Below the pieces are notes generated by a model that made no database searches, was not told the DNA's origin, and saw only the letters and a list, made by a program, of their open reading frames with translations. Below are positions 12,396 to 61,312 of a DNA stretch of 64,000 nucleotides, piece after piece. Where the stretch lies: positions 8,487,180 to 8,551,179 of the forward strand of contig NC_057752.1 of assembly GCF_004010195.1 (NCBI RefSeq), in the 5' to 3' direction. A program made the position numbers and the translations under genes. Origin of the DNA: Chiloscyllium plagiosum (Eukaryota). Each line of letters begins with the position of its first letter. Position 1 is the first letter of the stretch.

Positions 12396-12483
12396 TTCAT
12401 CAGTCATTATAGTGGCCATAGACCTGCCAATCTCATGGTATTGTTGAGCTTTGCCAACCGGTCCCAGCAAAATGAAAAGAAAT
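12396..12483 (-). CDS. SLC4A8: SLC4A8-like coding exon (88 nt; (R)[29 protein letters not shown])
   Basis: Acceptor ttctctttcttgcag, donor GAA|gtaagt. The peptide [23 protein letters not shown] is characteristic of SLC4A8. Confidence 0.93.
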
Positions 12484-25305: not shown

Positions 25306-25852
25306 GAAGACATCTATAATCACAAACTTTCATGTGTCCAGCTCATGCAGTGCCCAATTATGTTGATTAAACATCTTGGGCCCAAGCAATCTTGACCATA
25401 ATGTTAATTATGACAAGTTAATTTTGGTAATCATTGTTTACCATAAGTAACCTCAGGCAATCTACAAAGTGTCACTTGTGGTTGACAATTCGCAAGTGAA
25501 TTCCAAGGTCTCTCAAGCTGCGGAAGGGTTTGGAGCTACTTTCCCCACACACTGAACTGCAAGTATTTCACATCATACTCCCACATCAAAGCTGCCTTTT
25601 TTGGGTCATGTAGGGGGTGATGTGAGGTGGGAATGGTAGAAGAAAATGTAATTGTTCCCAACACACTTAAAATCTCCTACTGTCAGCACATGACATGGCT
25701 TAAGCAGCATACAATTGGAGTAAGGCCTATGTCAAAGGTTCATGTAGAGGCGTCCCATTACATTCCCTGTCAGAGTCCTCCATTTCCCTCTATATGGAAG
25801 ATTGTGGTAAACTGTGTGCTGTGACTGCTTTGTTTCTGTTTTATTCCCCATG

Positions 25853-26072
25853 TGGGGATCAGTTTAGCTCTGTTGACTGGACGGTTGGTTTGCGAAGCAG
25901 TGTGATGCCAACAGCATGGGTTAAATTCCCACACCAGCTCAGGTTACCATGAAGGCCTCTCCTTCTCAATGTCTCCCCTCCCTTGAGGTATGGTGACCCT
26001 CAGGATAAATCACCACAGAAATCTCTCTCTAATGAGAGAGCAGCCCTATGGTCTGGTAAGACTATGGCGACT
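25853..26072 (+). mobile_element. tRNA-derived SINE (non-HE1 family)
   Basis: tRNA-like head with A-box-like (TAGCTCTGTTG) and B-box-like (GGTTAAATTCC) motifs, ~220 bp long. Confidence 0.5.
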
Positions 26073-26199
26073 TGATTTGATTTCCTATGTAAGCTCAATG
26101 GAACTGTTGCCAATGGATCCATACACAGCAATGTTTTCATCTTGGTGGCTGCAGAACTACAATCAGCCATAGAAATTGATGGGAAACACGCGAATCTGG

Positions 26200-29050
26200 A
26201 AGCCTCAGAATATCCTCCAGATGGGCAAGGTGCAATTCTGCTGCCGAACTAAGGTGTCCCTGAACACCATAACAGAACTGTGTTACCTGTTGGAGCACTC
26301 CAGGTGTACAGCGCTATAGCCTGTATAGAGGTAGCGGTGATCATACTATATCATAACATGACTGACATAATTATCAGGAAAAGGTTCTATTCAGTCAATC
26401 TCCAACTCATCTTTGATCGTGGCAATCACATCTTGGAAGTTTGTGACAGGTATCTTGAAAAGTTCCATGATGCCTAATGCATTATAACTCTCAGGTTCCT
26501 GCTTCACTTCGAGGCACGTGTCTGACAAGAATGGCTGGTGGCAGACAAGGCCTACACATTTCACCATGCCTAATTACTCAGTTACGTAACTCTGTGACTG
26601 AGTCCCAGTGTGGGTACAATGTAACATCTTTATCCACGAGGGCCAGAGAGCCATACGATGTTTCTTTGAAATGAGATTCCCATGTAGTGGACAGTGAAGA
26701 AGGTTACCTCTGAGTTCGACAGGACCTTGATCAGATGGGCCAATGGGCTGAGGAATGGCAGGTGGAATGTAATTTAGATAAATGTGAGGTACTGCATTTT
26801 GGAAAGGCAAATCAGGGCAGGGCTTATATATTTAATGGTAAGGTCCTCGGGAGAGTTGCTGAACAAAGTGATCTTGGAGTACAGGTTCATAGTTCCTTGA
26901 AATTGGAGTCGTAGGTAGACAGGATAGTGAAGAAGGTATTTGGTATGCTTGTCACTATTGGTCAGTGCATTGAGTGCAGGAGTTGGGAGGTTATGTTGTC
27001 GTTGTACAGGACATAGGTTAGGCCACTTTTGGAATACTATGTTTAGTTCTGGTCTCCCTGCTATAGGAAAGATGTTGTTAAACTTGAAAGGGTTCAGCAA
27101 AAATTTAAAAGGATGTTGCTAGGATTGGAGAGTTTGAGCTGTAAGAAGAGGCTGAATAGGCTGGGGCTATTTTCCCTGGAGCAGTGGAGGATGGGGGGGG
27201 GGGGGGGGGATTGACAGCATGGTTTTGTGCAGGGGAGATTGTGCCTCAAGCTTGATTGAGTTTTTCGAAGAGATGACGAAGGTGATTGTTGAGCGAGAAG
27301 CAGTTGATGTTGTCAACATGAACTTCAGTAACTTTGGCAAGATCCCTCATGGCAGACTGGTACAAATGGTGAAGTCACATGGTATCGGGCTGAACTGGCA
27401 CGATGGATAGAGAACTGGCATAGTCAATGCAGACAGAGGGTAATGGTGAAAGGATATTTTTCGCAATGGGGGCCTGTGACTAGTGGTGTTCCACAGGGAT
27501 CAGTGCTGGGACCTCTGCTGGTTATGGAGTTTTGGAGGAAAATGTAGCTGGTCTAATTAGTAAGTTTGCGGATGATACAAAGATTGGTGGAGTTGCAAAT
27601 AATGAGGAGGATTGTCAGATAATATAGCAGGATACACATCAATTGGAGGCATGGGCAGAAAAATGACAGATGGAGTTTAATCTGGACAAATGTGAGATGA
27701 TGCATTTTGGAAGGTCAAGTGCAGGTGGAAATTATACAGTGAATGGCAGAACTCTTCAGAGTATTGATATGCAGAGAGACCTGATGTGCAGGACCACAGA
27801 TCACTGAAGGTGGCAGCACAGGTAGATAAAGGCCTGCATGCTTGCCTTCATTGGAAGGATATTGAGAATAAGGATAGATAAGTTATGCTGCAGCTTTATA
27901 GAACTTTAGTTAGGCTACACTTGGAATATTGCATACAGTTCCAGTCACCACACTACCAGAAGAATGTGGATGCTTTGGAACGGGTACAGAAAAGGTTTAC
28001 CAGGATGTTGCCTGGTATGGGGGATTTTAAATATGAAGAAAGGTTGGATAGGCTGGATTTGTTTTCACTGGAATGCAGGAGGTTGAGGGTGAGGGGTGAC
28101 CTGATAGAAGTTTATAAGATTGTGAATGGCATGGATAGAGTGGAAATTATCAAGTTTTTTTCCCAGGGTGGAGGGGTCAATTAGTAGGGGACACAGGTTC
28201 AAGGTGTGTGTGGAAGGGGGAGCAGAGTGAGTTTAAAAGAGATGTGCGAGGCACGTTTTTTACACAAAGGGTGGTGAGTGCCAGGAATGTGTCGTCAGAG
28301 GAGGTGGTGGAAGCAGACACAATAGCAGCATTCAAGAAGCACCTAGACGAATACAATAGAAAGGGAATAGATTCTGTAAGTTAAGTCAGTTTTAGTGTGG
28401 AAGGGCAAAATGTGTTGGCGCAGGCTGGAGGGCCAAAGGACCTGTTCCTGTGCTATATTGTTCTTCGCTCTTTGCTCTTGTAGAAGTTTATAAAATTATG
28501 AGGGGTGTAGATAGGGTGAATAGCCAAGGTCTTTTCCCCAGGGTAGGGGAGTCCAAAACCAGAGGGCATAGGTTGGTTTAAGGTAAGAGAAGAAAGATTT
28601 AAAAGAGACCTGAGGGGCAACGTTTGCACACAATGGGTGGCGCGTGTATGGATTGAGCTGCCAGAGGATGTGGTGGAGGCTGGTACAGTTACAACATTTA
28701 AAAGGCACCTGGATGGGTATATGAATAGGAAGGGTTTAGAGGGAAACGGGCTAAATGCTGGCAAATGAGACTAGATTAATTTAGGATATCTGGTCGACAT
28801 GGGCGAGTTGGACTGAAGGGTCTGATTGCCATACTGTACATCTCTATGACTTGATCTGGGGGGTCCTTGCACTACGCAACGGACAATTGGAGCTGGCAAA
28901 AAGTAATGGATGATGAGGTGTCAGAGCAGCAGAATTCTTCAGAGGAACAGGCTTAGGATGTTACTCTGGAGGAACATGACCTTCATCATGATATCAACAC
29001 AGAAGATTGGGTGCAACAATCCACAGAATTTATTGGCAACCTCTTCCAAT
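26200..29050 (+). mobile_element. PIF/Harbinger DNA transposase remnant split by CR1 insertions
   Basis: RKRFYSVNLQLIFD...VCDRYLEKFHDA, LRNSVTESQCGYN and LKMRFPC (to ~26682), resuming with SGGSLHY at ~28855; these match the HARBI1/PIF DDE pattern. Confidence 0.7.
26683..28850 (+). mobile_element. CR1 3' fragment with a second CR1 subfamily copy (~27215-28478) nested in it
   Basis: Two sets of RT C-terminal motifs (LVRLHLEYCIQF etc.) and two different CR1 3' UTRs. Confidence 0.8.
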
Positions 29051-32409: not shown

Positions 32410-33185
32410 AGTTACAGCAGTCTATTGCATAGAAAAAAACCCTTCAACCCATCACCTCCATGTCAGTCAAAAATGGCCACCTAACTACTCTACTCCCATT
32501 TCCAGGACTTGGCCCATAGCTTTGTCTGCCTTGGCATCACAAGTGCACATCTAAATACTTTCTAAATGTTATGAGGGGTTTTTACCTCCACCACCCTTAA
32601 AGGCAGCAAGTTTCAGATTCCCGCCACCCTCTGGATGAAACGGCTTTTCCTCACATCTCCTCTAAACCTTCTACCCCTTAGTCATTGATCCCTCTATTAT
32701 GAAGTAAACTGAGGGTAAACTTGAACAGGAAATACTTTATTGTACATCCCCTCAGCTCCAGTTGGTTTTAGACTGCCTGTTCTTAGCTCCCGAACCACAT
32801 CACCTGACCCACTCTCTTAAGGGAACAACACACACCCAACTACGTACATAACTCCATCCAACCAAGTGGAGATGTTTCTTCCTGTCTACACCTCTCATAA
32901 TTTTATACATCTCAATCAATCATCTCCCCTCTCAATCTCCTCTGCTTCACTGGAAACAACCCCAGTCGGTTGAATCTCTCTTGATAACAACTCTCCAGCC
33001 CAGGCATCATCCTGGTAAATCATTTCACTCACTCAATCATATCTCTCCTATAATGTGGATTCCAGAACTGCACACAATACTCGATGGCCTAACTATCTTA
33101 TATAGTTCCAGAATAACTCCCCCGCCCTTAAATTCTATGCATCAACTAATAAATGCAAGAGCCTTCTTAACCACTTTATCCATGT
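32410..33185 (-). mobile_element. Old CR1 3' fragment
   Basis: Decayed similarity to the other CR1 3' ends. Confidence 0.55.
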
Positions 33186-33561
33186 ATCTCATTCAAATAG
33201 GAACAGAGTTCTTCTGGATCTTGGCCAAAATTTCTCTCCTGATGAGCATCAAAAACATGGTGCCAGTTACTTACCTCACTTACAAACCTTGCTGACATTT
33301 TCCCAGAAGAAAATAATGAATATGCCTGAAAACAAACTAGTTGTGTTTTTTTTCCCTTTCATTTACAGGAGGAGGGCATTGCCAGCTCATCCAGCATTTA
33401 CTGCCCAGCCCTCATTGCATGGTAGGATTTGAACACAAGTCCCCAGGATATTACCTAGGTCTACAAGCTTAGTGATAATACCACTAGGCCATCATCTCCC
33501 TAAATGCAATATAATGGCAACTGAGCAAAGCTAACACTTGTTTTTAATAGTTTTAAATTAG

Positions 33562-35425
33562 CTGTGGTTCTGTTCGCCGAGCTAGAAGTTTTTGTTGCAA
33601 ACGTTTCGTCCCCTGGCTCGGCGACATCATCAGTGCTTGGGAGCCTCCTGCGAAGCGCTTCTTTGATGTTTCCTCCGGTGTTTATAGTGGTCTGTCCCTG
33701 CCGCTTCCGGTTGTCAGTTTCAGCTGTCCGCTGTAGTGGTTGGTATATTGGGTCCAGGTCGATGTGTTTGTTGATGGAGTTTGTGGATGAATGCCATGCC
33801 TCTAGGAATTCCCTGGCTGTTCTCTGTCTGGCTTGCCCTATGATAGTAGTGTTGTCCCAGTCAAATTCACACACACGCAGACAACAAGCAACATGAATTC
33901 GACTGGGACAACACTACTATCATAGGGCAAGCCAGACAGAGAACAGCCAGGGAATTCCTAGAGGCATAGCATTCATCCACAAACTCCATCAACAAACACA
34001 TCGACCTGGACCCAATATACCAACCACTACAGCGGACAGCTGAAACTGACAACCGGAAGCGGCAGGGACAGACCACTATAAACACCGGAGGAAACATCAA
34101 AGAAGCGCTTCGCAGGAGGCTCCCAAGCACTGATGATGTCGCCTAGACAGGGGACGAAACATTTGCAACAAAAACTCCCAGCTCGGCGAACAGAACCACA
34201 ACAAACAACCAAGTTGAAGGTTTATGTATAGATTTCCAATGACCTTGTCAAAGTCCTCCATGTCCCACTGTATTGACGACTGCTAAACTGTAATTTGTGT
34301 GTGCTGTGACTACTGACTGCTCACGTTACTAAGGACCTGTGCTGTTTCTGATATTTCCCACACTTTAATTTGAACTGTGACAAATAGGTCATGGTGGTAT
34401 GAAAGCACAGGGAAATTGAAGTACAAAAAATGTGCCAGCAAGACTAGAATTGGTAGTGACATCCAGCAGCTGCTGAACAGTCTCCAATATGAAGATGTCA
34501 CAGTTGAAGTACGACTCAGGAAAAAGAGACGGTACAGGTGGCCTTGATGAATCAAGAATCACCCTTGATTCCATTTCTTCCATTTGAGCAAGATGAATTG
34601 ACATTGCAGACTGAGGATGTCACTGTCACAGAACTGTGTCATCTGCTGGAGCAGGACTTCAATCTGAAGGGGTGGATGAGTGCGGCTATTCAGATAGCCG
34701 TCAAGGTAACTATGAAGCTAGATTTTTAACCAATTGGTGGCTTCCAATAATCCGCTAGGGGCCTGGGTGGGATCTATCAATCCTCAGTGCACAAATGTAT
34801 TAAGGTTATTAAAGTTTGGGTGCTCGTTGTTGTGGTTCTGTTCGTCGAGTTGGAGGTTTTTGTTGCAAACGTTTCGTCCCCTGGCTAGGTGACATCATCA
34901 GTGCTTGGGAGCCTCCTGCGAAGCGCTTCTTTGTTGTTTCCTCCGGTGTTTATAGTGGTCTTTCCCTGCCGCTTCCGGTTGTCAGTTTCAGCTGTCCGCT
35001 GTAGTGGTTGGTATATTGGGTCCAGGTCGATGTGTTTGTTGATGGAGTTTGTGGATGAATGCTATGCCTCTAGGAATTCCCTGGCTGTTCTCTGAGTGGC
35101 TTGCCCTATGATAGTAGTGTTGTCTCAGTCGAATTCATGTTGCTTGTTGTCTGCGTGTGTGGCTACTAAGGATAGCTGGTCGTGTCGTTTCGTGGCTAGT
35201 TGATGTTCATGTATGCGGATTGTTAGCTGCCTTCCTGTCTTCAACCGGAAGCGGCAGGGACAGACCACTATAAACACCGGAGGAAACATCAAAGAAGCGC
35301 TTCGCAGGAGGCTCCCAAGCACTGATGATGTCGCCGAGCCAGGGGACGAAACGTTTGCAACAAAAACTTCTAGCTCGGCGAACAGAACCTCAGCAACGAG
35401 CACCCGAGCTACAAATCTTCGCACA
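33562..35425. mobile_element. Composite Penelope-like insertion: four pLTR/GIY-YIG C-terminal segments in alternating orientation around ~610 bp of unrelated sequence
   Basis: Peptide TGRQLTIRIHEH...HEFDWDNTTIIGQA...REFLEAWHS (PLE endonuclease C-terminus); 13-bp direct repeat agttttaaattag at 33549-33561 and 35426-35438. Confidence 0.85.
35319..35358 (+). ncRNA. Minimal hammerhead ribozyme motif in a Penelope pLTR (further copies at 33596-33636 -, 34127-34166 +, 34864-34904 -)
   Basis: GCA-CUGAUGA-U-GUC...GAC-GAAAC-GUU-UGC: catalytic boxes, stem II GUC/GAC and stem I GCA/UGC. Confidence 0.65.
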
Positions 35426-37299
35426 AGTTTTAAATTAGATGTACCAAACCGGAAAGATAATTACTGCCAAATACAGTCACTATTGTGAACTTTAATATCA
35501 ATTTAAACAAGAGGGCCACAAGTCATAATTTTAATTTTGTGTAAATTGTATTCTTATCAGTATTGAGAAATGGATTTGCACGCTTTTCAGGCACTCAATA
35601 TTTCAGATCTGGGAGGCCAAACACTTCTTCAGAAGTGAAGGTCAGCTTTTTCTCTACTCCTGGAACATATTCTCCCAGGGCACTTTCATGGGCAGGAATC
35701 TGGTTTGGGAGCTACAAAACAGGAAGGGAAGGGGGAAAGCATCCAATTATCCTTGACTTCAATGAAGAAGTTTACCAATATCTGGAACTTGAGCTTGTTC
35801 TCACATCAGAAAATTAATGCTTTTATTTGTGCATCCAAATGAACATCTGTATGATGATGCATTTCAGGTGAATCAAAAAGGCAACATCAAAAGCTAGTTA
35901 GCAGCATCTTTGCCCATGTTAATTATGTCCCCCAAATGAAATTCTGCCATTTGTGCCTTTGGAAATATGGCTGTGAAATGAGTGCAATTTTTCTTCAATT
36001 GCCATCCGAGGTATCTAAAAAATGCTCACTTAGCATAGCCATTAGGTTTCTGGAGTTACAAATTCACTGATTTCTTGGTCTTATTCATACAGTTTAAGGT
36101 CATCATCTGTTATAAGGTCAGTTTAAGGTTAACATATGATTATTTCCTCTATCTCAAATTTAGATTATATTGAGGCTCTGACTAATATTTGCACACTGCA
36201 TTATCTTCTTACCCACAATACTTCAATCAATTGGAAATTAAATTTGCACCACATTGATATGACTTGATCATTTAATCGAGCCATAAACCAGGCTCAATTG
36301 AGCTACTTGCTCTTCTCAGCATTCCCAGCCATTTCTTGTAATTGGTTTTGTAATTTTTATATCCATCAATATTTCCACTCCTTTTGTTGATCCACAGTCC
36401 ATTACCGACTTGTAGCTACTTGATGTTGACTCTCATTCTCCCAAAATGGCAACAATTCTCCATCAATTCATAATCTATGTTCCGTAAATCTCTAAACTTC
36501 ACCACTGCCTTTAACCAATCTAAACAATGCAAAACGTTTTTTTTACATTTCTAGCAAGAGACCAAGGTGGTTGAGGGGTACACAGATAACACACATAACA
36601 GTCTTTAAAATATCAGGATTCAAAGTTCATTTGAATGATTTAAGTTCCTGGAAAGGAGCAGAAGGTCCCTGGGAAAAGGGATAAATTCTCAAGGACACTT
36701 TTTTGGCATCAAAAAAAATTACTCAATTTTGTGCTAATAATTATAAAGATTACATTTAAGGGTTTATGAGAATGTGGATGCAAAACAAACATGAGCGTTC
36801 AAAGGATTTGAGTTTTCTTGGGGGGATGTGATTAGGACTTTCGTTTGCAAAGAGAATATCTTTCTTCAGTGGTTGCGCCATGAAAGGTTTTCCATCAGAT
36901 ATTTTTTAATGAAAATAAAATATTAATGAAACGTGAACTCTACATCTAACCAGGTTGATCCCCTGACTTGATGACATTACAATGAAGGCTGGAGGTGTTA
37001 ACTGTGTCTTTCTAGTTTCATTATGTCACTGGTCACAATATGATTTTAAAGACTTTATCTAGTTACAGGTGATATTTTTGTCTACATTAGATTTAGAATA
37101 AATAATAAAATTAGAGATTTATTATAAAACTAGACCTAAATCGACAAACATGCAAATCTGGTTAACAGTTTGACCTATGAAATACTTCTAAATACCTATT
37201 CCCTCCACCATGCACACACATAAACACCCCAATTAAACAGAAAAATAAAACTCTCCCTGCAGGGAATAATTATGAAAAAAAATTTGGCCCAGCAATGGT

Positions 37300-37880: not shown

Positions 37881-40800
37881 CACTATAACCCTCCCTCTTG
37901 GAGTCCAAGGACATAGGCTAATTCTTTTTCTTGGGAGAGCCTCTTCGGACATTTTAGCAGTCAGTCAGGTTCCTCTGACTCAGCATCCAATACAGGCAGC
38001 ATGTAATGCATGGCAGCTCAGCTCTTATGCCAGGAGCACTTTGGTAGAATTTCACTCTCTTCTGGCAGCAAAGGTGTTGAGGCAGCTATATCCGTCATGT
38101 CCGTTTCTGATTCTGAGGACTTGACAATACTTCATGGAGAGGGTGAACCCACAGGATCTGGCAGCCTTTCTGAGGGGCAAGGCACATTTTGCACCTGCAC
38201 TGTTTGAGAATTTGTGGCTTTCATATGGTCCACATGCTTATTCAGGATCGTCATACCAAGCCAAACTTTATATGTCATTAGTCCTGACCTCATGTTGACC
38301 TTGCCTCCTACTCAAGCAGGGCCATTTCCGTTATTTTTACAATGACCATCATGCCCAGTATCAAATCACCTCTTTCACTTGATGGAGACGTAAGTCTGGC
38401 ATTGCAGATCCTGATGCAGTTTAACCCTCACCCCTAGGTTCAGGAAGATCAGACTTAACCTGGTGCAGAGTTGTCTCCCCATTATCAACTGTAGCTGCAT
38501 GTGGGGTGGCCCTATTATCAAACAAGAACCAGGGGGACTTGGCAAGATGGTGGTGATTCTGTAGAACTGCTGTGGACAGCTCTGCCTAACAGCCGAGGCA
38601 TACTGGTGTTTTTTGCCATCCCTGGCCAACTTATGTGGTGGAATTATTAGTTTAAAACCTTACAGAACACATATTTGTTAATATTTGGGAGTGGGTAGGA
38701 TGCCAAAGGGAAAAGGAGCGAGCAAACAGCAGCAGGGAGGACACTCCCCTGCAGCACCTACCACACCAGAGACTGCAGCAGCAGAAGCCTCTCCTGATCC
38801 CCTCGGGGACCTGACAGACTCACAGGAATTGGCTGCGGTGATGGAGAGACTTACCTTGAAAGTTGGGGCTGCAATTGAGGAGATTCGTGCCCAGGTCCAA
38901 ACTATTCCATCCATGCTGCAGAAGCATGAGCAGGAGATCCAGGGCCTCGGGGAGAGGCTGGAGGAGATGGAGGGTCGAACTAAGGCCTCGGAAGCTGCGA
39001 CGGAGTCCTCATCCAGTCGGATCCAGGTGCTGGAGCGAGAGGTGCGGGCCTTGCAAAACCATATTGATGACCACGAAAATAGAGGTCAGAGGATAAATCT
39101 CTGAATTTTCGGGCTCCCTGAAGATGAGGAAGGTGAGCAGCCAGTCAGCTTCTTTGAAAGCTGGCTGCTGAAGTTTTTGGGCCTTCACATTGAGTCCAGC
39201 TGGCTGCAGATTGAAAGGGCTTATCGGGTTACAGTGCACAGGTCAGGGCCAGTGCAGTGCCCCCGCCCAGTCCTACTGTACTTCCACTCATGTAAGGACA
39301 AGCAAAAAGTCATCGAAGCTTCCAGATCCCTGGGAAAAGATCCGCAGGTACTGCTGTACAAGGGGTCAAAAATCATGTTTTCCCAGGATTTCTCCGCAGC
39401 TGTAATTCGAAAGAGGAAGTGCTTCGATGAAGTTAAAAAGAGGCTGAGGAACCTGGGCATCCAGTACTCGATGGGATACCCTGCAGTGCTTTGTTTCAGC
39501 CACGAGGACTCAGTTTATACATTTGACTCAGCGGATAAAACTAAAAACTTTGTAGACACTTTAAAATAGATGGATTAGCCTGAAGAATATGGTTAATATT
39601 TGTTCTCTTTTCTATCTTTCCCCATGTTTTCCCTTCCTTTTTTTAAATTCCTTTCTTTCTCCCTAATAATTTCCTTTTTGGAAAGGAGGGGGAAGACCTT
39701 GGAATAAGTTGTTCCTTTTTTTTAATAACTGGATTTTCTGATGGGAAATGTTGTGGGTGTTCTTTGTTGTCTCTTCCCCTTTTTTTTATTTGTGCTGTTT
39801 CTCTTTTAGTCACAAGTAGGGGTGACATGAAGCCAGGGATGGGTGGAGTGTGCTCATCCTGACTTTGTATTTTTTCTGTTGATGTAAGGATCATCTCCTT
39901 GTTGTTTTTTCTGGCCTAAGGCTGGGGTACAGTCCGGGTTTGAAGGAGCTGTGAAGGAGGGGATAGGTAGGGTGAGTGCCCCCTATGGGCAGGGGGAAGA
40001 GTCTTCCATTCAAGGTTCTATAGTTGGTTTTCTTTGTAGTTTTTTGGTAGTAATAGTTGTTTATAGTTATGATAGAGTAGTTTTTGTATATATAGTTCTT
40101 CACCTCTATGAGTCTTTATTTATTTATGCTCGGCGCTTTGTAAGCAGGGTTCTCCCTCCCAAGGGTTCAAGGGTCTCTGAAAGGGGATATGGCTAAGTGT
40201 CTTATTAAATGGTGCACCTGGAACATTGAGGGGAGTCTATTAAAAGGAAAAAAGTGCTTTCTAGCCTTAAGAGGGAAAGGGTTGATATTGCTTTGCGGCA
40301 GGAAACTCATCTTGATGATGGGGAACACCTGAAATTACAACAGGGGGCTATGACCGGGTATCCTTTTCATCCTTTACTACTAAAAGTAGGAGAGTGGTGG
40401 TACTTATCCAGAAAAATCTTCCGTTCACATTAGAGCAGGTGAAAGATGAGCAGGGATGGTTTGTGATACTTAAAGTCCTGATACATGGGGAGGAATATGG
40501 CATTTTAAATGTCTACTGTCCTCCAGCGCAGTCCCTCAAATTTTTGATTAGTGCTTTCTCTAAGTTGAGTGCTTTTAGAACACAGCACATTATTATAGGA
40601 GGGGATTTTAATTGTCTTTTGGATCCGACAGTGGACAGAATGCCTTGTGGGCCCCCCAACTATTTCTTCGCAGGTTAAGCAGGTGGTTGACTAATGCGAG
40701 GAGTTGGGGCTGGTGGATATTTGGAGATGTCTTCACCCTACCGGCAGGGACTTCACCTTTTTTTCAAACCCACATAAATGTCACATGAGGATTGACCTCT

Positions 40801-43114
40801 TTCTGGCTCCCTTGGCCCTTCTGGATTCGATAATAGATTGTAAAATTGGGAATATAGCTATCTCCGATCACGCGGCGGTATATTTGGAGGTTACGGCCAA
40901 GAGTGGAGGGCTAGGTTTGCGGCACTGGCGTTTGGATCCTTTTTGAAGGAGTTTCAGGAATTCTTGACTATCAATTCAGGCACGGCTAGTAGTCCATATA
41001 TGCTATGGGAGACTGCTAAGGCCTTTGTTAGGGGATTAGTTATTTCCTATTCGGCTAGCTGGAAACAACAAAAGGAGGAACAGCAGCGTCGACTTGAGAC
41101 ACGGTTGAAAGCTGCCAAGGCAGCACATTTTGCGTGGCCTTCGGTGACTAAGCTACAGTGGATCACGGCCCTCTGGACTGCCTTTACTGACTCAAAATGC
41201 AAAGAAAGAACTTGCAGGCTGTTTGAATATGGGGATAGGCCAGGGAAGTATTTAGCGTACCTGACTAGGAAAAGGCATGCTCCCCAATCCATTACTGCAA
41301 TCAGAGACAGCGCCGGGGTCCTTACCTACGATGCCAAAAAGATTAATGAGACTTTTCGGAGCTTTTACTCTGAATTGTATCGGTCTGAAGGTTGCGAGGA
41401 TAGGAGGGCTAAAATATACACCTTTTTTAAGAACCTGGACCTCCCAGGGGTAACCTTGGAACAGGCCTCTCTCCTTAATGCCCCCTTGACAGTTCAGGAA
41501 ATACAGGAGGCAGCTAGGCAATTTCAGAGTGGGAAAGCGCCTGGCCCTGATGGTCTTCCGGGTGAGTTTTATAAAGAGTTTATAGGGATTCTGTCAGGGC
41601 CGATGTTGGAGATGCACAATCACTCTGCATGAATGCCTACCATCATCTTTGCGAGAAGCTAATATTTCCTTAATTCTTAAGAAGGGGAAGGTTCCTGAGG
41701 ATTGTGCCTCATATTGGCCCATCTCTATTAAATTCAGATTTCAAGATTCTGTCCAAGATCCTGGCGCTGAGATTGGAAAGGGTGTTGCCCCATATTATTA
41801 AAGAGGACCAGACAAGCTTTATAAGGGACTGTAGGTCCTCTAATAATATTAGAAGGTTGCTGAATATGGTCCGAATTTGTCAGCAATGATCGCTTCAGGG
41901 GTTGGTGATTTCCTTAGATGCAGAGAAAGCATTTGACCGGGTGGAATGGCCATATATTTTTTATGTCTTAGAACAGTTTGGGTTGGGTGGAGTCTTTGCT
42001 AGGTGGGTGGAGGTTTTATATTGTCACCCTCTGGCTGCCGTTATCACCAACGGGGTGAAGTCTAGGAATTTTAGGATTGGTAGAGGTAGTCGGCAATGCT
42101 GCCTCCTCTCACTGCTGTTGTTTACGTTGGTGATAGAGCCGCTGGCAGAGGCCATTCATCAGAACATCCACATAACTGCTCTGGAAGTGGGATCAAGGGC
42201 ACACAAGATTACACTGTGTGCGGATGATGTTTTTATCGAACCCAATGATCTCCGTACCCCATTTGATACATGTATCAGTTCATTTGGGGCTATTTCAGGA
42301 TGTAAGATTAACTTTGCAAAATCAGAGGCTATGTCTCTGGGGAACTTCAAGGGTGTGCCAGAAGTTGAAGGTGGCTCTAAGTTCCCTTTTACATGGTCAC
42401 GGTCAGGGTTCCAATATCTAGGCATTGAGCTGTTATTTCGGACTAACTTTGCTCACTTGCTCGACAATATTATACGAGATCTCCAGAGATGGGAGGCTCT
42501 TCCAATTTCATGGCTGGGCCAAATATATCTCATTAAGATGAATATTCTTCCTCGTTTGCTTTATCCCATGCGTATGCTCCCTATAATGTTTCCCAGGTCA
42601 ACGCTATGGAAGCTTATGGGGTGGTTTGGTTCCTTTGTCTGGCTTCATGGGCGGCCCCTCATCAAATTTACTAAATTGCAGTTGCCTCAAGAAAGGGGAG
42701 GAGTTGATTTCCCAGACATCAGGAGGTATCAGTTGAGTTCCGTGCTGTCCTTTCTCTGTGATTGGGTAGGAAACGATCCAAACTCAATATGGCTGGATAT
42801 TGAGGCCTCCCAAGCAAAGTGCCCTCTTATTAACCTGTTGTTCATGGATAAGATGAGGACAGTTATGGACCACTGCCGGAACCCCATTGTCATTAGTACA
42901 GTCAAGGCATGGAGGGCTATGTGTCAGAGTGAGGGTTGTTTATCCAAGACTTCGCAACTTATACCTATAGTTGGCATGCCAGGGTTCCAACCAGGGATGA
43001 TGGACTCAGGGTTCAAATTATGGGCAGCGAGAGGAGTTTCTAGTTTGGGAGACTTGTTTGAAGGGGAGGTTATGATGTCTTTTGAGCAACTGAGCCACAA
43101 ATACGGGTTGCCCA

Positions 43115-46100
43115 GAACAAAGAGAACAAAGAACAAAGAAAATTTACAGCCCAGGAACAGGCCCTTCAGCCCTCCAAGCCTGAGCCGATCCAAATGTACT
43201 GTCTAAACCTGTTGGTCAATTCCTAAGCATCTGTATCCCTCTACTCCCTATCTATTCATGCATTTATCCAGACGCATCTTAAATAAATCTACCGTGCCTG
43301 TCTCTACCACCCTGCTGGCAACGCCCACCAACCTCTGTGTGAAGTACTTGCCGTGTGTATCCCCCTTAAACTTTTCACCTCTCATCTTGAAAGCGTGACC
43401 TCTCGTTATTGAATCCTTCACCATGGGAAAAAGCTTGTCTCTATCCATCCTGTCTATACCCTTCATGATTTTGTAAACTTCAATCAGGTCCCCCCTCAAT
43501 CTCCTTTTTTCTAATGAAAATAAACCTAACCTACTCAACCTTTCTTCATAGCTCGCACCTTCCATACCAGGCAACATCCTCGTAAACCTTCTCTGCACCC
43601 TCTCCAAAGCATCCATATTCTTTTAGTAATGTGGCAACCAGAACTGTACACAGTATTCTAAATGCGGCTGAACTAATGTCTTATACAATGTTAACATGAC
43701 TTGCCAGCTCTTATACTCAATACCCCTTCCAATTAAGGCAAGCATACTATATGCCTTCTTGACCACTCTATCCACCTATGCAGCAACCTTCAGGGTACAA
43801 TGGACCTGCACTCCCAGATCTCTCTGCTCATCAACGTTTCCCAAGGCTCTTCTGTTCATTGTATAATTCGCTCTCGAATTAGTCGTGTCTAAATGCATCA
43901 CCTCACATTTGTCTGGATTGAAAACCATCTGCCACTTTTCTGCCCAACTCTCCAGTCTATCTATATCCTCCTATATTCTCTGACAGTCCCTTATGCTTTC
44001 CGCTACTCCACCAATCTTCGTGTCATCTTCAAACTTGCTGATCATACCAACAGTGCCCACTTCCAGATCATTTATGTATATTACAAACAACAGTGGCCCN
44101 NNNNNNNNNNNNNNNNNNNNNNNNNNNNNNNNNNNNNNNNNNNNNNNNNNNNNNNNNNNNNNNNNNNNNNNNNNNNNNNNNNNNNNNNNNNNNNNNNNNN
44201 NNNNNNNNNNNNNNNNNNNNNNNNNNNNNNNNNNNNNNNNNNNNNNNNNNNNNNNNNNNNNNNNNNNNNNNNNNNNNNNNNNNNNNNNNNNNNNNNNNNN
44301 NNNNNNNNNNNNNNNNNNNNNNNNNNNNNNNNNNNNNNNNNNNNNNNNNNNNNNNNNNNNNNNNNNNNNNNNNNNNNNNNNNNNNNNNNNNNNNNNNNNN
44401 NNNNNNNNNNNNNNNNNNNNNNNNNNNNNNNNNNNNNNNNNNNNNNNNNNNNNNNNNNNNNNNNNNNNNNNNNNNNNNNNNNNNNNNNNNNNNNNNNNNN
44501 NNNNNNNNNNNNNNNNNNNNNNNNNNNNNNNNNNNNNNNNNNNNNNNNNNNNNNNNNNNNNNNNNNNNNNNNNNNNNNNNNNNNNNNNNNNNNNNNNNNN
44601 NNNNNNNNNNNNNNNNNNNNNNNNNNNNNNNNNNNNNNNNNNNNNNNNNNNNNNNNNNNNNNNNNNNNNNNNNNNNNNNNNNNNNNNNNNNNNNNNNNNC
44701 TATCTTTGAAAGCCTCCCACATATCAAATGTGGACTTCCCTTCAAATAGCTGTGTCCAATCCACATTTCTGAGCTCCTGCCTAATTTTGATATAATTAGC
44801 CTTGGCCCAGTTTAGTACTCTTCCCTTAGTACCACTCTCTTCTTTATCTACGAGTATTCTAAAACTTACAGAATTGTGGTCACTGTTGCCAAAGAAATCC
44901 CCCACCGCAACTTCTACCACCTGTCCTGGCTCTTTCCCCTGTACCAGGTCCAATATGGCCCCTTTCCTCGTCGGACTATTGACATACTGCTCTAGAAAAC
45001 TCTCCTGGACGCTTCTTACAAATTCTACCCCATCCAGACCTCTGACGTTAAGTGTATTCCAGTCAATGTTGGGAAAATTAAAATCTCACATCACCACTAC
45101 CCTATTGCCTCTACATCTTTCCATAATCTGTTTACCTATTTGTTCTTCTACCTCACCCTCACTGTTGGGAGGCCTGTAATACAGCCCCAACAGTGTGACT
45201 GCACCCTTCTTATTTCTCAGCTCCACCCATATTGCCTCACTACCCAAGACCTCCATAGTGTGCTCCTTTAGCACAGCCGTGATATTGTCCTTAACCAGCA
45301 ATGCAACTCCACTCCCCCTTTTACTTCCCTCCCTGTCTTGTCTGAAGCATCTATATCCTGGAACATTTAATTGCCAATCATCATGCCCTTCCTTCAACCA
45401 AGTCTCTGTGATTGCAATAACATCATACTCCCAGGAACCAATCCAAGCCCTAAGTTCATCTGTCTTACACACTATACTCCTTGCATTAAAGTAGATGCAT
45501 TTCAAGCCACCAGTTTTTTTGCGCTCATCTGCTCTCTGCCTACTCTTCCCTTTATTAATGCTATCTTCATGATTCTTACAGTCTCCAGACTCCACCTCAC
45601 TGCCTACTTATTTTCTCTTCTAGTTCCCAGCCCCCTGCCACATTAGTTTAAAACCTCCCCAACAGCAGTAGCAAAAACTCCCCCAAGGACATTGGTTCCG
45701 GTCTGGTTCAGATGTAGCCCGTCCATTTTGTAATAGTCCCACCTTCCCCAGAGCCGGTCCCAATATCCAACAAATCTGAACCTCTCCCTCCTACACCATC
45801 TCTCAAGCCACGTGTTCATCCTGCCTATTTTTTCATTTCTACGCTGGCTAGCACGTGGCACTAGTAGTAATCCTGAGATCACTACCTTTGAGGTCCTCCT
45901 CTTTAACTTCTCTCCCAGTTCCCTGAAATCTTCTTTCAAGACCTCATCTCGTTTTCTACTTATATCGTTGGTGCCTATATGCACCAAGACAACTGGCTGT
46001 TCATCGGCTGCAGAATGTTCTGCAGCCGATCGGTGACATCCCTGACCCGAGCACCTGGGAGGCAACATACCATCCGGGAGTCCCGTTTTTGGCCACAGAA

Positions 46101-47043
46101 TCGCATATCTACTCCCCTCACAATAGAATCCCCTACGACTATGGCCCTACAAGTCTTTCTCCCGCCCTTCTGAACAGCAGTGCCCGCCACGGTGCCATGA
46201 TCCTGGCAACTGCTGCCCTCCCCTGGTGAGCCATCTCCCCCAACAGTATCCAAAACGGTATGCCTGTTTTGGAGGGAGATGACCACAGGGGACACCTGGA
46301 TTGCCTTCCTACTTTTTTTTTGTCTTTTGGTCACCCATTCACTGTCTCCCTCAGCAAATCTGCGGTGTGACCAGTTCACTAAATGTGCTATCTACGACCT
46401 CCTCAGCATCGCGGATGCTCCACAGTGAGTCCATCCACAGCTCCAGAGCCGTCATGCGGTCAAACAAGAGCTGCACCTGGACACAATTCTTGCAAGTGTA
46501 AGAGTCAGGAATGTCAGACCCATTCCTAAGCCCTCACATCAAGCAAGAGGCACATGCCACAGGTCTGAGTTCCCCTGCCATTGTAAGCTTAGCTTTGAAT
46601 GAACTAACTAAAACCAAACAATGCACTTAAATAAATGAAAAAGAAAGATAAAGAAAAAAATAAAAGCCTTACCTTAAAGAGTCTTTTTCTTCTGGTTAGA
46701 GGAGGGGGGCAGGAGGGAGATACTACACCTGTAGTATCTCGGGTTTAGCCACTGCCCAAATATAAATTAAGCCCTTACCTTTCCCGGCAGTCCTTGCTTC
46801 ACTCCACCTTCTCTCCTCGCCACTCTGTCAAAATGGAGGCCCGACTCCCAAGGTAAGTCCCTTTTTAAGTGGGAAAACTTACCTTCCCCGGCAGCCCTCG
46901 CTTCACTCCACCTTCTCTCCTCGCCACTCTGTCAAAATGGAGGCCCGACTCCCAAGGTAAGTCCTTTTTAAGTGGGAAAACTTACCCTCCCCGGCAGCCC
47001 TCGCTTCACTCCACCTTCTCTCCTCGCCACTCTGTCAAAATGG
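43115..47043 (-). mobile_element. Near full-length CR1 (ORF1 SGNH-esterase type, ORF2 APE...RT) spanning a gap
   Basis: ORF1 VVGDSIVRG, HIGTNDI and DGLHLN; ORF2 NARSI...ITETWL...YYRPPN...SDHN; short-repeat 3' tail at ~43115-43140. Confidence 0.9.
44100..44699. other. Assembly gap (N run)
   Basis: 600 Ns. Confidence 1.
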
Positions 47044-47048
47044 AGGTT
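46774..47048. repeat. ~103-bp tandem repeat (2.6 units) at the 5' end of the CR1
   Basis: Unit cttacc..cccggcag...aaaatggaggcccgactcccaaggtaagtcc; ORF starts at 46869 and 46972 are offset by 103. Confidence 0.9.
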
Positions 47049-49928: not shown

Positions 49929-52900
49929 AAGATGGTGGCAATCTAACAGGCCTGCCTTGCTGAGCTCTGCACAATAACACAGACGAAGTGGTGCTTTTAC
50001 CCTCCCCATCTAAGCTATTTTGAAGAAAATTGATAGTTTAATATCAGTAGAATTGCTACATACCTTTTCGTTTTAGTAAGGGAAGATGACTAGAGACAAA
50101 GGACCAAATAAATTGCAACAGGCAGGACATTCTCCTGCAGCATCGGTCATGAATCCCAATGGACTCACCTACTCAACAAGGCATGGCTGCAGTGTTTGTG
50201 AAACTCTGAGGCATCGATTGGAGAGAATTGCACCAGGCTGCAACTGATCTTGGCCATGCTGCAGAAGCATGAGCAGGAGCTACAGAGTCTCGGGAAGTGA
50301 GTGGAGGAGGTCAAGCAGTGGACCACGACATCAGAGACAGTGGTCAAGTCCTCGGCAGGATGTATCCAGGCCCTGGAGAAGCAGGTATGGGCCTCGGTAG
50401 AACAGGTCAACAACCTCAAGAATAGAGGTCGAAGAAAAAACATCTGGGTGGTGGAGCGAGAGGAAGATGCGCAGCCAGCCAATCTCTTTGAACGATGGCT
50501 GCTGTGATTTCTGGGTTGGGAGGCCAAGGCAGGCTAGGTGCAGATTGAGAGAGCTCACTAAGTGGCGGTGCACAGGCCCAGTTCGGACCAGCGCCCCCGC
50601 CCAGTCCTGTGCGATTCCAGTCCTATAGGGAAAAATAAAAGGTAATGGAAGCCTCCAGATCGCAGGGAAATGATCCACAGGCTCCAATTTATAAGGGATC
50701 AAAGATTATTTTTTAGGACTTTTCTGCAGCCATGATCCGCAAGAGATTCTTTGCTGAGATGTAGAAGAGATTTAGGGATCTGGATATTCAATATTACATA
50801 AGGTACCTGGCGGTATTCCCTTTTAACCACGAAGGGTCCGTGCATGTGTTTGACTCCTCAGGAAAAGCAAAGAACTTTCTGGACACTTTGAAATAGGCTG
50901 GATGGTCCAAAGAACATGGACAATAATGACTCTCCTTTCTTTTACCTTTTTTTTTCTCTTCCTCGTGTACTTCTCCTTTTCCTTTATTATTTTATTACAG
51001 AAAATGTTGTTGCTTTGTTTCTTCCTAGTGACAATTGAGTTCAATGTAGGGTTGGGGATGTGTGAAGTGCCCACTTTTGATTCCTTTGTCCACATTATCT
51101 ATTTCTTTTATTCTTCACCTGAGTTTGGGGCATGGCTCAAGCTATAAGGAGTTATGGAAGTGTATGCGGGTAGTGTAAGTGCCCCCTGTGGGCAGGGGGA
51201 TAGAGTCTCCCATCAAGTGTTTTTTGTATGTTGTAATTGGTTTAGTTTGTTGGTTTCTAGTAGAGGTAGCTTTTGAAAGTTTTGTTAACATAGACTTAGT
51301 GTTAACTTGGTTTTAGTTTTTTGTAGTTTTTTTAGACTTCGTGAGTCTCCATTTATTTACACTTGGCTCATTGTGAGTAGGGTTCTTCCTCTTGGGATTT
51401 CAAGGGTTGTTATAGAGGGATATGGCTAAGTGTCTCCTTAAATGGTGTACCTGGATTATTAAGGGGAGTCACTCGCTGGCCAAGAGAAAAAAAACCTACT
51501 TCCGAGTCTCAGGAAGAAGAGGGTTGATATTACCCTGCTGCAAGAAACCCATCTTGATAATAAGGAGCACCTAAAGTTACAGCAGGGTGGGTTTGATCAA
51601 GTGTTTTTTTCATTCTTTAACACTAAAAGCAGGGGAAAGGCCATGCTTGTCCAGAAGAGTCTCTCTTTTAAGTTATAAGATCAAGTTAAAGATGAATATG
51701 GACGGTTTGTAATCCTTAAAGCTTTAATACATGGTGAAAATGTATGGATTCCTAAATGTTTACTGTCTCCCGGCACACCCCCTCAAATTCCTGATTGATG
51801 CACTTTCTAAGTTGATTGCCCTTGAAACACGACACACTATCATAGGGGGAGATTTTAATTGCCTCATGGACCCCACAGTGGACAGAATGCCCAAAGGTCC
51901 CCCAAATATCTCTCCACAATCCAAGCAACTGGTTGACTTATGCATGGAATTGGGACTGGTGGACGTTTGGAGATGTGTCTACCCCATGGGTAGGGACTTT
52001 ACCTTTTTCTCTAATCCGCACAAGTGTCATACCAGGATTGACTTTTTTTTTTAGCTCCCTCAGGCTTTCTGGATTCGGTGAGGTCTTGTAAAATTGGAAA
52101 CATTGCCATTTCTGATCATGCAGCAATGTGTTTGGAGATTGAGATTAAGGGCAACGGAACGGGGGATCCAAGATGGTGGCGACCTAGCAAGTCTGAGTCT
52201 ATAGTGCTCCTCTCAAGACGTGGGCAAAGTAGGCCACCCTCCTCCTCCACACTCACCAAATCACTTAAAATAGTTTTCACTTAATGTAATTAGTTGCTCA
52301 GTACTGAATTTAAACAATCTAATCTCCTGTAAAAATGACTGAAGGGAAGGGAGCCCGCAGTTCTCAGCAGGAAGGAACCCCTCCCCCACCCTCCCCAGCT
52401 GCAGCAGAGACGTCCGCAGCCGCCCCGGGGGACTTACCTACGGTGGCGAGCCTCGTGGAAATAATCTCTAAACGCGATGCGAAGATCGACGCCTTCATTG
52501 AAGAGTCCCGGAGCCGATGGAATTCACTCTCGGCCGCGCTACAAAAGCACGACCGAGACATCGAGGAAATCAAGCACCGAGTTGGAGGGGTGGAGCTAAA
52601 GGCCGTGACGTCCGAGAGTATAGCAGAATCAGCCGTGGATCGGGTCTGGACTCTCGAACAGCGAGTTCGGACCTTGGAAAATCACATCGACGACCTCGAG
52701 AATCAAGGTCGTTGAAAAAATATTCGTTTGGTGGGCCTTTCTGCACGGGAAGAGGAAGGCCAGCTTACAGCGTTTCTCGAACAGTGGCTTCCACAGCTTT
52801 TAAATCTGGAGGCTGGATCAGGCCAGGTAAAGGTGGAATGGGCCTACCGGGTTGCAATATGCGGGCTCGGCTCGAACCAGCGCCCCCGCCCGGTCCTGTT

Positions 52901-60516: not shown

Positions 60517-60519
<3 letters not shown>

Positions 60520-60551
<32 letters not shown>
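60520..60551. repeat. (TA)n microsatellite
   Basis: Direct inspection. Confidence 0.95.
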
Positions 60552-60556
<5 letters not shown>

Positions 60557-60858
60557 CATTAAATAAATACAAATCTCATCTAAACTTTATCAGTTAAATC
60601 CGCGATAATGCATCTGCGATTATATTCTTGCAACATGTACGATTTTTAAATTAAAAGTCTGTAACATAAGACTCCAACGAAATAATCTCATATTCTTGTC
60701 TTTAAAGTGTTCTAAGAATGTAAGAGGATTGTGATCCGTATACACAACCACCTCCGACACATTGTTCGTGACGTACACATTAAAATGTTGTAAGACCAGT
60801 ACCAAACTCAATAGTTCTTTCTCGAGCATGGAGTATTTCCTCTGGTGGATGTTGAGTT

Positions 60859-61312
60859 TAGGAAGTTTTACGAACCTGGTTGCTGTGTTTCTTGGTGAGT
60901 CCAACACAAAACAGGTGAAGCAAGTATTTTGACATCAATGTGGGCTTCAATCATGGTCTGCCATCTTTTAACCATACAGCACATCTTATCATGTGTTACG
61001 TCCATGCCATGGAAGTTGGTCAGACAGTTTTTGCCCTGAACGTCCTCCACGATAAACTTAAATTTGTGGAAGGTCACTTCATCGTTCTGCAAATCAGCTC
61101 AAACACATGGCCTTTTAAGCCTTCTGAGGCAATTTTAGTTCCCTGAGTCCCTGTAACCAAGGTCTTGCCCAGATTCTTAATGTCAAACATCGCTGGAGCC
61201 TTAACATCGTACCAATCCTTCTTGGAGAAGGGGTCCATGATCTTCTTCTTAGCACCCTTTTTGCCTCCCTTGATCAGCCTCTTGTTTTTACCGACTGCCA
61301 TGTTGCTCGCGG
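60859..61312 (-). pseudogene. RPS3A: Processed (intronless) 40S ribosomal protein S3a retrocopy, 3'-truncated, with two small frameshifting deletions
   Basis: [34 protein letters not shown]...[11 protein letters not shown]...WQTMIEAH...[21 protein letters not shown] at 61301-61299; no introns and no poly(A). Confidence 0.95.

Follow-up and report, generated by a model that had tools for sequence, protein, structure and literature searches.

An intron of an SLC4-type gene in the window (the whole 64-kb stretch of DNA that was analyzed) holds four truncated 3' ends of Penelope/Poseidon retroelements (PLEs), placed in alternating orientation around a segment of about 605 bp, here called X. The explanation that we tentatively favor, at a probability of roughly 0.45, is a single complex insertion of Penelope/Poseidon, with each of four DNA ends serving as a primer. 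The block is a variant of the already known PLE-mediated capture of DNA, and the locus is probably an inert intronic fossil, with a scrap of a dead transposon enclosed by dead retroelement ends deep inside the intron.

Structure and Identity of the Insertion Block

The whole block occupies positions 33562-35425, with a 13-bp repeat bracketing it on the outside, and its central B-X-C unit measures 1372 bp (Table 1). Sequence comparison bore out the four PLE arms and their orientations as described in the initial annotation, the boundaries of which were broadly right and have been corrected at the start of arm B, the end of arm C, the start of arm D and the limits of X. The first three letters assigned to X (34205-34207) may be junction filler, in which case X starts at 34208. 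The right end of X was moved to about 34811 because 34812-34818 matches the end of the long tail of the family in public contigs, which implies that the tail of arm C carries a 19-nt internal deletion.

Table 1. Features of the block, in coordinates of the window.
Feature	Position	Strand	Description
Target-site duplication, left copy	33549..33561		13 bp; AT-rich; ATT triplet on each strand
Arm A	33562..33869	-	5'-truncated Penelope/Poseidon 3' end; short tail toward left flank
Minimal hammerhead core A	33600..33633	-	inferred cut after 33600
Arm B	33870..34204	+	truncated PLE 3' end; short tail directed into X
Minimal hammerhead core B	34130..34163	+	inferred cut after 34163; helix-III palindrome broken by mutation
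Segment X	34205..34811	+	inner part of an old DNA transposon of Harbinger type
Arm C	34812..35241	-	longest PLE piece; long tail directed into right end of X
Minimal hammerhead core C	34868..34901	-	inferred cut after 34868
Arm D	35242..35425	+	short PLE 3' end; full long tail toward right flank
Minimal hammerhead core D	35322..35355	+	inferred cut after 35355
Target-site duplication, right copy	35426..35438		13 bp

The host gene is of the SLC4A7/8/10 type and lies on the minus strand, and the block sits inside one intron of about 50.7 kb that separates consecutive Band_3_cyto exons. The earlier placement in an SLC4A8 intron thus stands as far as the SLC4-type intron is concerned, while SLC4A8 itself is one candidate among the SLC4A7/8/10-type paralogs. 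The left flank, when reversed, matches 26.8-27.2 kb of the window inside a different repeat, which we take to be LINE-like.

Arm A contains the end of the GIY-YIG region and a pLTR with a minimal hammerhead motif, followed by its tail, and showed 87% identity over 82 aa to P0004 in a tblastn comparison. The translation of arm C matched 9 of 36 candidates at E≤1.8e-26, with homologs from carpet sharks; among the four relatives that were scanned, RVT_1 was found in three and a weak GIY-YIG match, below the cut-off, in two. Pfam gave no match in the arms themselves and none in three direct translations. We take the arms to be Poseidon rather than Neptune, which is a tree-free assignment. They display the PLE pattern of inverted 5'-truncated copies, an optional tail of 30-40 nt and a target-site duplication at an AT-rich site, and the family is very abundant, with more than 2000 aligned records per run. 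Position 34204 is a common 3' end of the family, at which 63, 40, 103 and 51 contigs had loose ends in the four runs, and both the loose-end consensus and inspection of the junctions indicate that X joins PLE tail ends on both sides.

Evidence for a Single Event

The 13-mer claimed earlier to bracket the block does so, occurring exactly twice in the 64-kb window. The probability of such a bracket arising by chance is about 6e-6 (allowing ±5 nt of slop), and none of 2802 random position pairs had a match of 12 or more, the maximum being 11. The inner palindromic units have no duplication of their own, the matches at their borders being 3 and 5 nt and within chance. A 6-nt match (AAGTTT) around C|D was rejected as a separate duplication, its left copy lying inside the tail of C, and insertion into a circular X was rejected in that the ends of X have no duplication between them (3 nt).

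Divergence among the arms was counted over the same 153 sites for all pairs. A and D differ at a single site, A and B at 6, B and D at 7, A and C as well as B and C at 9, and C and D at 10, so that the description of the PLE copies as almost identical holds for A and D but not for the other pairs. The A-D count differs from those of C-D (Fisher p=0.01) and B-C (p=0.02), whereas the difference from A-B is below significance (p=0.12). Three shared sites separate A and D from B and C, and a Trp-to-stop change is common to B and C and missing from A. Over their longer overlap B and C differ at 12 of 335 positions, which calls for different templates or greater age.

As judged from these sites, the similarity among the arms is nested, the opposite of what two separate palindromic insertions or fold-back copying would be expected to give. 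Fold-back self-priming was rejected for both joins in view of the differences between their arms, which number 7 over 307 aligned sites for A|B and 10 over 163 for C|D and include shared lineage markers; that the four arms come from different templates also argues against simple fold-back priming. The A|B join has no microhomology. The 74 junction-proximal bases of A hold no marker that speaks against their having been copied from an older arm. The private variants of C are missing from D starting at base 20 of D, so that the C|D junction looks newly formed. Excision of a circle and re-integration by homologous recombination was rejected by reasoning, in that the marker pattern leaves insufficient room for crossovers. 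With A and D nearly identical and B and C different from both, one event is favored over two insertions, and the earlier proposal of a single insertion is backed by the 13-mer statistics, the lack of inner duplications and the similarity of A and D. The earlier view that the arms are young is supported as well.

Segment X, a Probably Foreign Fragment

Segment X was first described as unrelated sequence; it is unrelated to PLEs, but it is not anonymous. Positions 34586-34810 encode the N-terminal half of a decayed Harbinger/HARBI1-type transposase. A full HMMER scan with the X translation returned 5 matches at E≤7.1e-4 among 1.84 billion proteins, three of which are named putative nuclease HARBI1 and bear DDE_Tnp_4, and identity to HARBI1-type proteins is 35-44% over 55-75 residues. 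The coding similarity ends at about residue 244 of P0013, ahead of the DDE domain (285-437), and inspection of the sequence found no terminal inverted repeat at the ends of X; it thus has neither the intact DDE domain nor the terminal inverted repeats needed for Harbinger self-mobility. A word-indexed search with the X translation matched none of 14 candidates. No second copy of X is present in the 64-kb window, and another Harbinger remnant at about 25.7-26.6 kb was rejected as the donor, being only 69% alike over 104 columns.

That X is foreign to the site, as proposed before, is probable: it ends in the middle of the transposase, no Harbinger continuation is found in the 600-nt flanks, and its ortholog in a related species (organism C) is free of PLE ends. 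This ortholog aligns with 34208-34811 and has other letters beyond both ends, the contigs extending 107 letters past 34208 and 462 past 34811 without a PLE tail, which means that arms B and C arrived after that split. The divergence since that split is about 2% (13 substitutions in 618 nt). In two same-species runs, contig depth over the core of X was 2 against 2-3.8 and 9.3 against 3.1-18.1, and thus not clearly doubled, a comparison that gives a weak hint only and no copy number and comes from animals that may lack the insertion. Coverage holes are seen in X at about 34735-34760 in both of these runs, and prove nothing.

Hammerhead Motifs

The initial annotation suggested that X and the inward-pointing pLTRs of B and C could form a self-processed mobile RNA. 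A pattern scan found both core boxes in all four arms, with cut sites placed by analogy with the min-HHR of PMC4209133. Rfam gave no hammerhead match, and three sub-threshold Rfam matches of miRNA shape over the center of the A|B palindrome were rejected as reflecting the hairpin shape. The minimum-energy folds of single motifs differ from the hammerhead fold.

A retrozyme-like unit, cut from a transcript by its ribozymes and then re-inserted, could draw on two same-strand pairs: C and A on the host-sense strand, with 1268 nt between the inferred cuts and both helix-III palindromes intact, and B and D on the plus strand, with a spacing of 1192 nt. Minimal hammerheads have also been proposed to act as dimers (PMC4209133), and non-LTR retrozymes, in the available text of the sources, share with the block type I hammerhead motifs that derive from PLEs, with two on each strand (bioRxiv 10.64898/2026.07.22.740005; PMC7229834). 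However, the motifs of B and C are on opposite strands, the helix-III palindrome of B is mutated, all four arms extend past the inferred cut sites, and no edge of the block or of an arm coincides with one. When either strand is folded at minimum energy, long duplexes with another arm take up 45-47 of the 47 motif bases. Unlike the retrozymes, the block has no tandem units, Tandem Repeats Finder reporting one 9-nt two-copy array (33000-36000, periods ≤500), and the core of X has no sign of amplification. Hammerhead cleavage is moreover dispensable for insertion in vitro (PMC11167929). We therefore regard a hammerhead-delimited mobile RNA as extremely improbable.

Mechanism and Alternative Explanations

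A purified Poseidon protein, a predicted dimer, cleaves and extends both DNA strands with a preference for ATT and does not need target homology (PMC11167929). Under the favored model, the endonuclease of the element would have cut the AT-rich site of the SLC4 intron in staggered fashion, leaving 13-nt overhangs. Reverse transcription of near-identical RNAs would then have started from their tails on the two target 3' ends, producing arms A and D. The part of the dead Harbinger element that is now X would have been freed elsewhere, probably by two nearby cuts, and its two 3' ends would have been primed likewise from other templates, which would account for B and C. Head-to-head joining of the four truncated cDNA ends in swapped pairs (A-B and C-D) would finally have sealed X into the target. 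All four arms would thus be simultaneous, X would have been transferred as DNA and not as RNA, and a donor locus would exist whose state separates the models cleanly.

Since both ends of X join PLE tails, which are the start points of reverse transcription, X looks like a primer and not like simple 3' read-through cargo. Plain read-through transduction, as suggested previously, is weakened by the far end of X meeting a second PLE tail and not the target duplication, and also by the finding that the purified Poseidon reverse transcriptase starts inside its RNA, with added downstream sequence leaving the main product unchanged (PMC11167929). Thus, of the earlier reading that X was co-mobilized, the single event and the foreign origin stand and the read-through does not, while a template jump survives as a rival. 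Against the four-primer model, it demands three near-simultaneous breaks, two of them within 605 bp, and the left end of X, which is only moderately AT-rich (0.70), has no ATT at the junction; the differences between B and C and the unmarked 74 bases of A are further points. In the available text of recent L1 studies, two independent L1 cDNAs can join and bridge distant breaks, also head to head with two tails (bioRxiv 2024.08.27.596794; 2025.09.17.676864).

Among the alternatives, it is unlikely, though worth serious consideration, that one inner arm (B or C) pre-existed at the donor with X as its 3' flank. The nascent cDNA of A or D would have jumped to this donor, or to an antisense transcript of it, and extended through the arm and 605 bp of its flank, the new end then priming the other inner arm; X would then have been copied, not moved, which is nearest to the template jump of the initial annotation. 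A single earlier insertion would suffice, antisense templates and template jumps have been proposed for PLEs (PMC3846280), and homology, according to the available part of the L1 literature, promotes recombination of L1 intermediates. Arm C has 9 private changes in 309 nt plus the tail deletion, against about 3 changes in B, as an older copy might, but the time since organism C diverged would account for only about 3 of these 9 (Poisson p=0.006), so that age alone is insufficient as an explanation. The depth over the core of X, which is not clearly doubled, also speaks, weakly, against this reading. We consider it quite unlikely that the donor carried two earlier PLE insertions 605 bp apart and that the resulting 1372-bp B-X-C unit, with its tails inward, later entered a younger A...D insertion as a copy made by way of RNA or of homology-driven DNA repair. 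The derived stop shared by B and C, which differ from one another more than A does from D, would fit such a donor, as would the abundance of the family and the Adineta case of DNA captured between pLTRs, with a duplication (PMC3846280). Yet both insertions must be later than the organism C split, and the match of D to A, and not to C, begins as early as base 20 of D, so that a homology-based exit would have had hardly any room.

An assembly chimera, in which a true A|D insertion was fused via homologous arms with B-X-C from another locus, seems improbable. The assembly is gapped, with three N runs, palindromic PLE structures trouble assemblers according to the available text of PMC8557442, and none of the contigs listed (32 pieces, from reads aligned to 34170-34860) bridges the inner junctions B|X and X|C; the order of the block is thus far that given by the assembly. 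Against a chimera, there is no N within 8 kb of the block, the four arms all differ, every junction is crisp and falls at a biologically expected tail end, and a B-X-C locus would still be required elsewhere. More improbable still is that X is native to the intron, with A|B and C|D as independent palindromic insertions and the 13-mer as a coincidence. Depth over the core of X looks like that of a single place in all four runs, which is a weak indication, and the overhangs in organism C could in principle correspond to the local intron flanks of this site. Such an origin is nevertheless hard to reconcile with the statistics of the 13-mer, the lack of a duplication around either unit, the nested and not paired similarity of the arms, and flanks without Harbinger continuation.

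Comparison With Known Systems

The closest parallel is PLE-mediated capture in Adineta vaga (Arkhipova et al. 2013, PMC3846280), which the shark block resembles in the enclosure of unrelated DNA by pLTRs and a target-site duplication, in its head-to-head inverted arms and in tail extension. In Adineta, however, the NRPS cargo is flanked by a direct pair of pLTRs, with one further inverted copy, whereas the direct pairs of the shark block, A-C and B-D, each enclose X plus an inverted arm. Here, the cargo, a scrap of a dead transposon, has two tails pointing into it, and the four arms require no fewer than two or three templates. Taken alone, A...D is a standard head-to-head pair at an AT-rich site with one short and one long tail, like the ordinary inverted PLE insertions in the available text of PMC8557442 and PMC11167929, from which the block differs in holding the B-X-C unit.

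As far as the available text goes, L1 bridges also combine independent cDNAs, different DNA ends, joins at 5' truncations and swapped partners (bioRxiv 10.1101/2024.08.27.596794; 10.1101/2025.09.17.676864; 10.1101/2024.12.14.628481). Those are events of somatic or cultured cells that result in translocations, inversions and deletions, whereas the shark block is a germline PLE event that inserted a small fragment and kept a single intact duplication. The B-X junction by itself resembles an element with its 3' flank, as in the L1-type 3' transduction outlined in the available part of PMC6431247, but the far end of X abuts the tail of a second element and there is no poly(A).

Implications

The tails that face the cargo from both sides suggest capture at the level of DNA, and hint that PLEs may move pieces of DNA by capping broken ends rather than by copying through RNA. 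A broader and more doubtful proposal is that the Penelope machinery can excise a genomic fragment, add a reverse-transcribed cap to each end and insert the product at a third cut, the cargo being DNA and never RNA. The value of the block is that of a mechanistic fossil, since the building of inverted PLE ends and the movement of intron-containing DNA are still open questions in the available text of the literature (PMC3846280, PMC8557442), and shark assemblies rich in PLEs lend themselves to a genome-wide count of the same signature. If general, DNA-level capture would explain the retention of introns in host genes moved by PLEs, and PLE-rich germlines would be a source of small insertional translocations, marked by inward tails on both sides.

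Results

The block was laid out from the sequence, a repeat search, self-BLAST and alignment. It consists of four truncated Penelope/Poseidon (PLE) 3' ends, here called arms A to D, and a segment X between B and C. All five parts are enclosed by two copies of a 13-mer, a target-site duplication, and the five-part arrangement proposed in the initial annotation was confirmed in the assembled sequence. In the whole window, self-BLAST placed the 13-mer only at 33549 and 35426; the chance of such a pair is about 6e-6 if its place may shift by 5 nt either way, and a match of at least 12 nt was seen in 0 of 2802 random position pairs (longest, 11). In the same test the A|B unit reached 3 nt, the C|D unit 5 nt and the ends of X 3 nt, none of them beyond chance, so the sole duplication is the one around the whole block.

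Features of the block, the host gene and the surrounding repeats
Feature	Position	Strand	Remarks
Arm A	33562-33869	minus	
Arm B	33870-34204	plus	
Segment X	34205 to about 34811		
Arm C	34812-35241	minus	
Arm D	35242-35425	plus	
Band_3_cyto exon	63227-63385	minus	Pfam profile 180-229
Band_3_cyto exon	12396-12482	minus	Pfam profile 230-258
Band_3_cyto exon	5492-5635	minus	Pfam profile 260-294
Second decayed Harbinger-type remnant	~25735-26640	plus	DDE-region homology; seems internally deleted; 69% similarity to part of X
Nested inverted repeats	60173-62412		60173-60287 with 62298-62412 (91%); 61320-61559 with 61734-61970 (87%)
Several long LINE-like ORF1/ORF2 remnants	38680-43210 and 50100-58200		63-72% alike to each other
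Near-perfect short tandem duplications	7230-8056 and 46774-47046		95-97%

Three exons, first located by motifs, match consecutive stretches of Pfam Band_3_cyto. Since the profile parts are consecutive, the block lies inside a single repeat-filled intron of about 50.7 kb (12482-63227) in an SLC4A7/8/10-type gene. The best structure-bank matches are SLC4A8, A7 and A10 types, and because their ranking differs between two exons, the host paralogue may be any of these. Elsewhere in the window, the nested inverted repeats are possibly another family of palindromic inserts, and the ORF remnant inside them (60620-60934) is presumably Gypsy-like. The LINE-like remnants we take, by their motifs, to be L1/Tx1-type. 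The duplication at 7230-8056, which stops at an N gap, could be an assembly artefact.

Each arm was recognized by tblastn as the 3' end of the same ORF plus the terminal repeat. Of 36 candidates, 9 matched translated arm C (61-88% identity), and the nearest relatives of the arms were found in bamboo, epaulette and zebra sharks; RVT_1 was seen in three of the four arm-C homologues scanned and a weak GIY-YIG signal in two, all below curated cut-offs. Over the 153 nt common to all four arms, 1 site differs between A and D, as compared to 6 for A-B, 7 for B-D, 9 each for A-C and B-C, and 10 for C-D (Fisher test of A-D vs C-D, p=0.01; vs B-C, 0.02; vs A-B, 0.12). Three sites separate A and D from B and C, and similarity groups the outer against the inner arms. 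Fold-back copying, which predicts that A resembles B and C resembles D, was rejected on this grouping. No microhomology is seen at the A|B join, and the private variants of C are missing in D from D's 20th base on. Because C carries 9 private changes in 309 nt, whereas about 3 are expected since the split from a relative (organism C; p=0.006), the divergence of the inner arms is due to different templates and is no guide to their age. A Trp-to-stop change in the endonuclease region, common to B and C (~33968, ~35063) and absent from A, suggests a defective template lineage mobilised in trans. The centre of the A|B palindrome (33824-33939) scored 64 bits to a plant miRNA model (gathering 74), which is a hairpin-shape match. 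Long duplexes in the host pre-mRNA could feed into small-RNA or editing pathways.

A motif scan found both hammerhead core boxes in every arm, and an Rfam search called none of the four motifs. Analogy with the minimal motif of PMC4209133 would place cuts after 33600, 34163, 34868 and 35355. None of these sites coincides with an arm or block edge, and since each arm runs beyond its own cut, the templates were uncut by hammerheads. The motifs of B and C are on opposite strands and therefore unable to bound one RNA; those of C and A are both on the host-sense strand, 1268 nt apart. The helix-III palindrome is mutated in B, and in the minimum-energy fold 45-47 of the 47 bases of each motif are paired with another arm. 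Unlike retrozymes as characterized in 10.64898/2026.07.22.740005, the block region contains no tandem array according to a tandem-repeat search.

Neither a direct Pfam search nor a word-indexed search identified X. A full HMMER scan of the translation of 34619-34810, with stops read as X residues, against 1.84 billion proteins returned 5 proteins (E up to 7.1e-4), of which 3 are shark putative nuclease HARBI1 with DDE_Tnp_4. With the HARBI1-type protein P0013 as tblastn query, the match covers 34586-34810 and stops near residue 244, ahead of the DDE domain; no continuation was found in the right flank. The alignment of X to the decayed Harbinger copy at 25.7 kb scored 83 (shuffle maximum 58), and the 600-nt flanks scored 29 and 36 in the forward direction (shuffle maxima 42 and 40). 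Because the match stops before the DDE domain and the flanks hold no continuation, X is a fragment from the interior of an old Harbinger copy that was broken mid-gene.

Contigs from 4 of 23 listed public runs were aligned to 34170-34860, which covers the inner, not the outer, junctions. Those from the same species (organism A) showed zero differences from X over 34244-34734 (run X1) and 34235-34650 (run X16); depth of the X core was 2 vs 2-3.8 and 9.3 vs 3.1-18.1, not clearly doubled, and depth is not copy number. The match of organism B showed 23 differences over 34337-34799. Organism C is about 2% diverged (13 substitutions in 618 nt); in it, one contig aligns to 34208-34650 with 107 more letters and another to 34630-34811 with 462 more, neither following the PLE tail, the extension at the reverse-transcription start. 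The 107 letters were positioned beyond 34208 by the coordinate convention, verified on three orthologous records. Because these contigs leave the PLE tails at 34208 and 34811, X is present without PLE ends in this relative, and the overhangs, known by length only, do not alone prove X foreign here. Loose contig ends accumulate at 34204, the end of B (63, 40, 103 and 51 contigs in the four runs; AT-rich continuation), which is thus a 3' end common in the family. Just ahead of 34813-34818, the loose letters are the long PLE tail, and 34812-34818 is PLE, not X. The long tail of C (34812-34826) is 19 nt short of the family tail in public contigs, possibly through a slip of the reverse transcriptase (RT) right after initiation.

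Discussion

The Poseidon protein of the green anole cuts and extends both strands, prefers ATT, is a predicted dimer and does not require homology to the target; hammerhead cleavage is dispensable, and RNA added downstream left its main product unchanged (PMC11167929). Since its RT starts at two internal RNA sites, which set the tail (same source), every tail would by that logic mark a DNA 3' end used as primer. Arms A and D would then correspond to the two overhangs left by cutting the target, and B and C to both ends of X, the four primed ends being fused head to head with their partners swapped. We consider this the simplest reading, with a probability of roughly 0.45. On the right X ends in ATTA, much as the left duplication ends in ATTAG; the left end of X is less typical. 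Joining of independent cDNAs across breaks has precedent in L1 (10.1101/2024.08.27.596794; 10.1101/2024.12.14.628481; 10.1101/2025.09.17.676864).

One inner arm may instead already have been present at the donor locus, a secondary and rather unlikely possibility, and the prior presence of both is less probable again. Over these two and the four-end reading together, a single event with a foreign X is likely, not proven. The initial annotation had X co-mobilised by 3' read-through or a template jump; plain read-through fails because the far end of X joins a PLE tail instead of the duplication. Against the four-end reading, no contig crosses B|X or X|C among the 32 pieces listed (11741 more) or the 24 loose-end rows listed (616 more), and the depth of the X core is not clearly doubled in organism A. 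An assembly chimera is improbable; none of the three N runs in the window comes within 8 kb of the block. Two independent palindromic insertions around a native X we regard as more doubtful still, given the rarity of the 13-mer pair by chance, the lack of separate duplications at A|B and C|D, and the outer-inner grouping of the arms in place of the A-B and C-D pairs that this reading predicts. The self-processed mobile RNA unit suggested earlier conflicts with the opposite strands of the B and C motifs, the edges away from the cut sites and the missing tandem array, and a ribozyme-cut mobile RNA is very improbable.

Inverted arms and tails are standard for PLE insertions (PMC8557442), and unrelated DNA caught between PLE terminal repeats (pLTRs) with a duplication has been described (PMC3846280; summarised in PMC6431247), one case being a gene with introns for which the empty site was verified (PMC3846280); passages of PMC9977147 add nothing on capture. 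The tails-inward form with four arms was not found in the main texts of mostly open papers, and the block described here is one inert instance.
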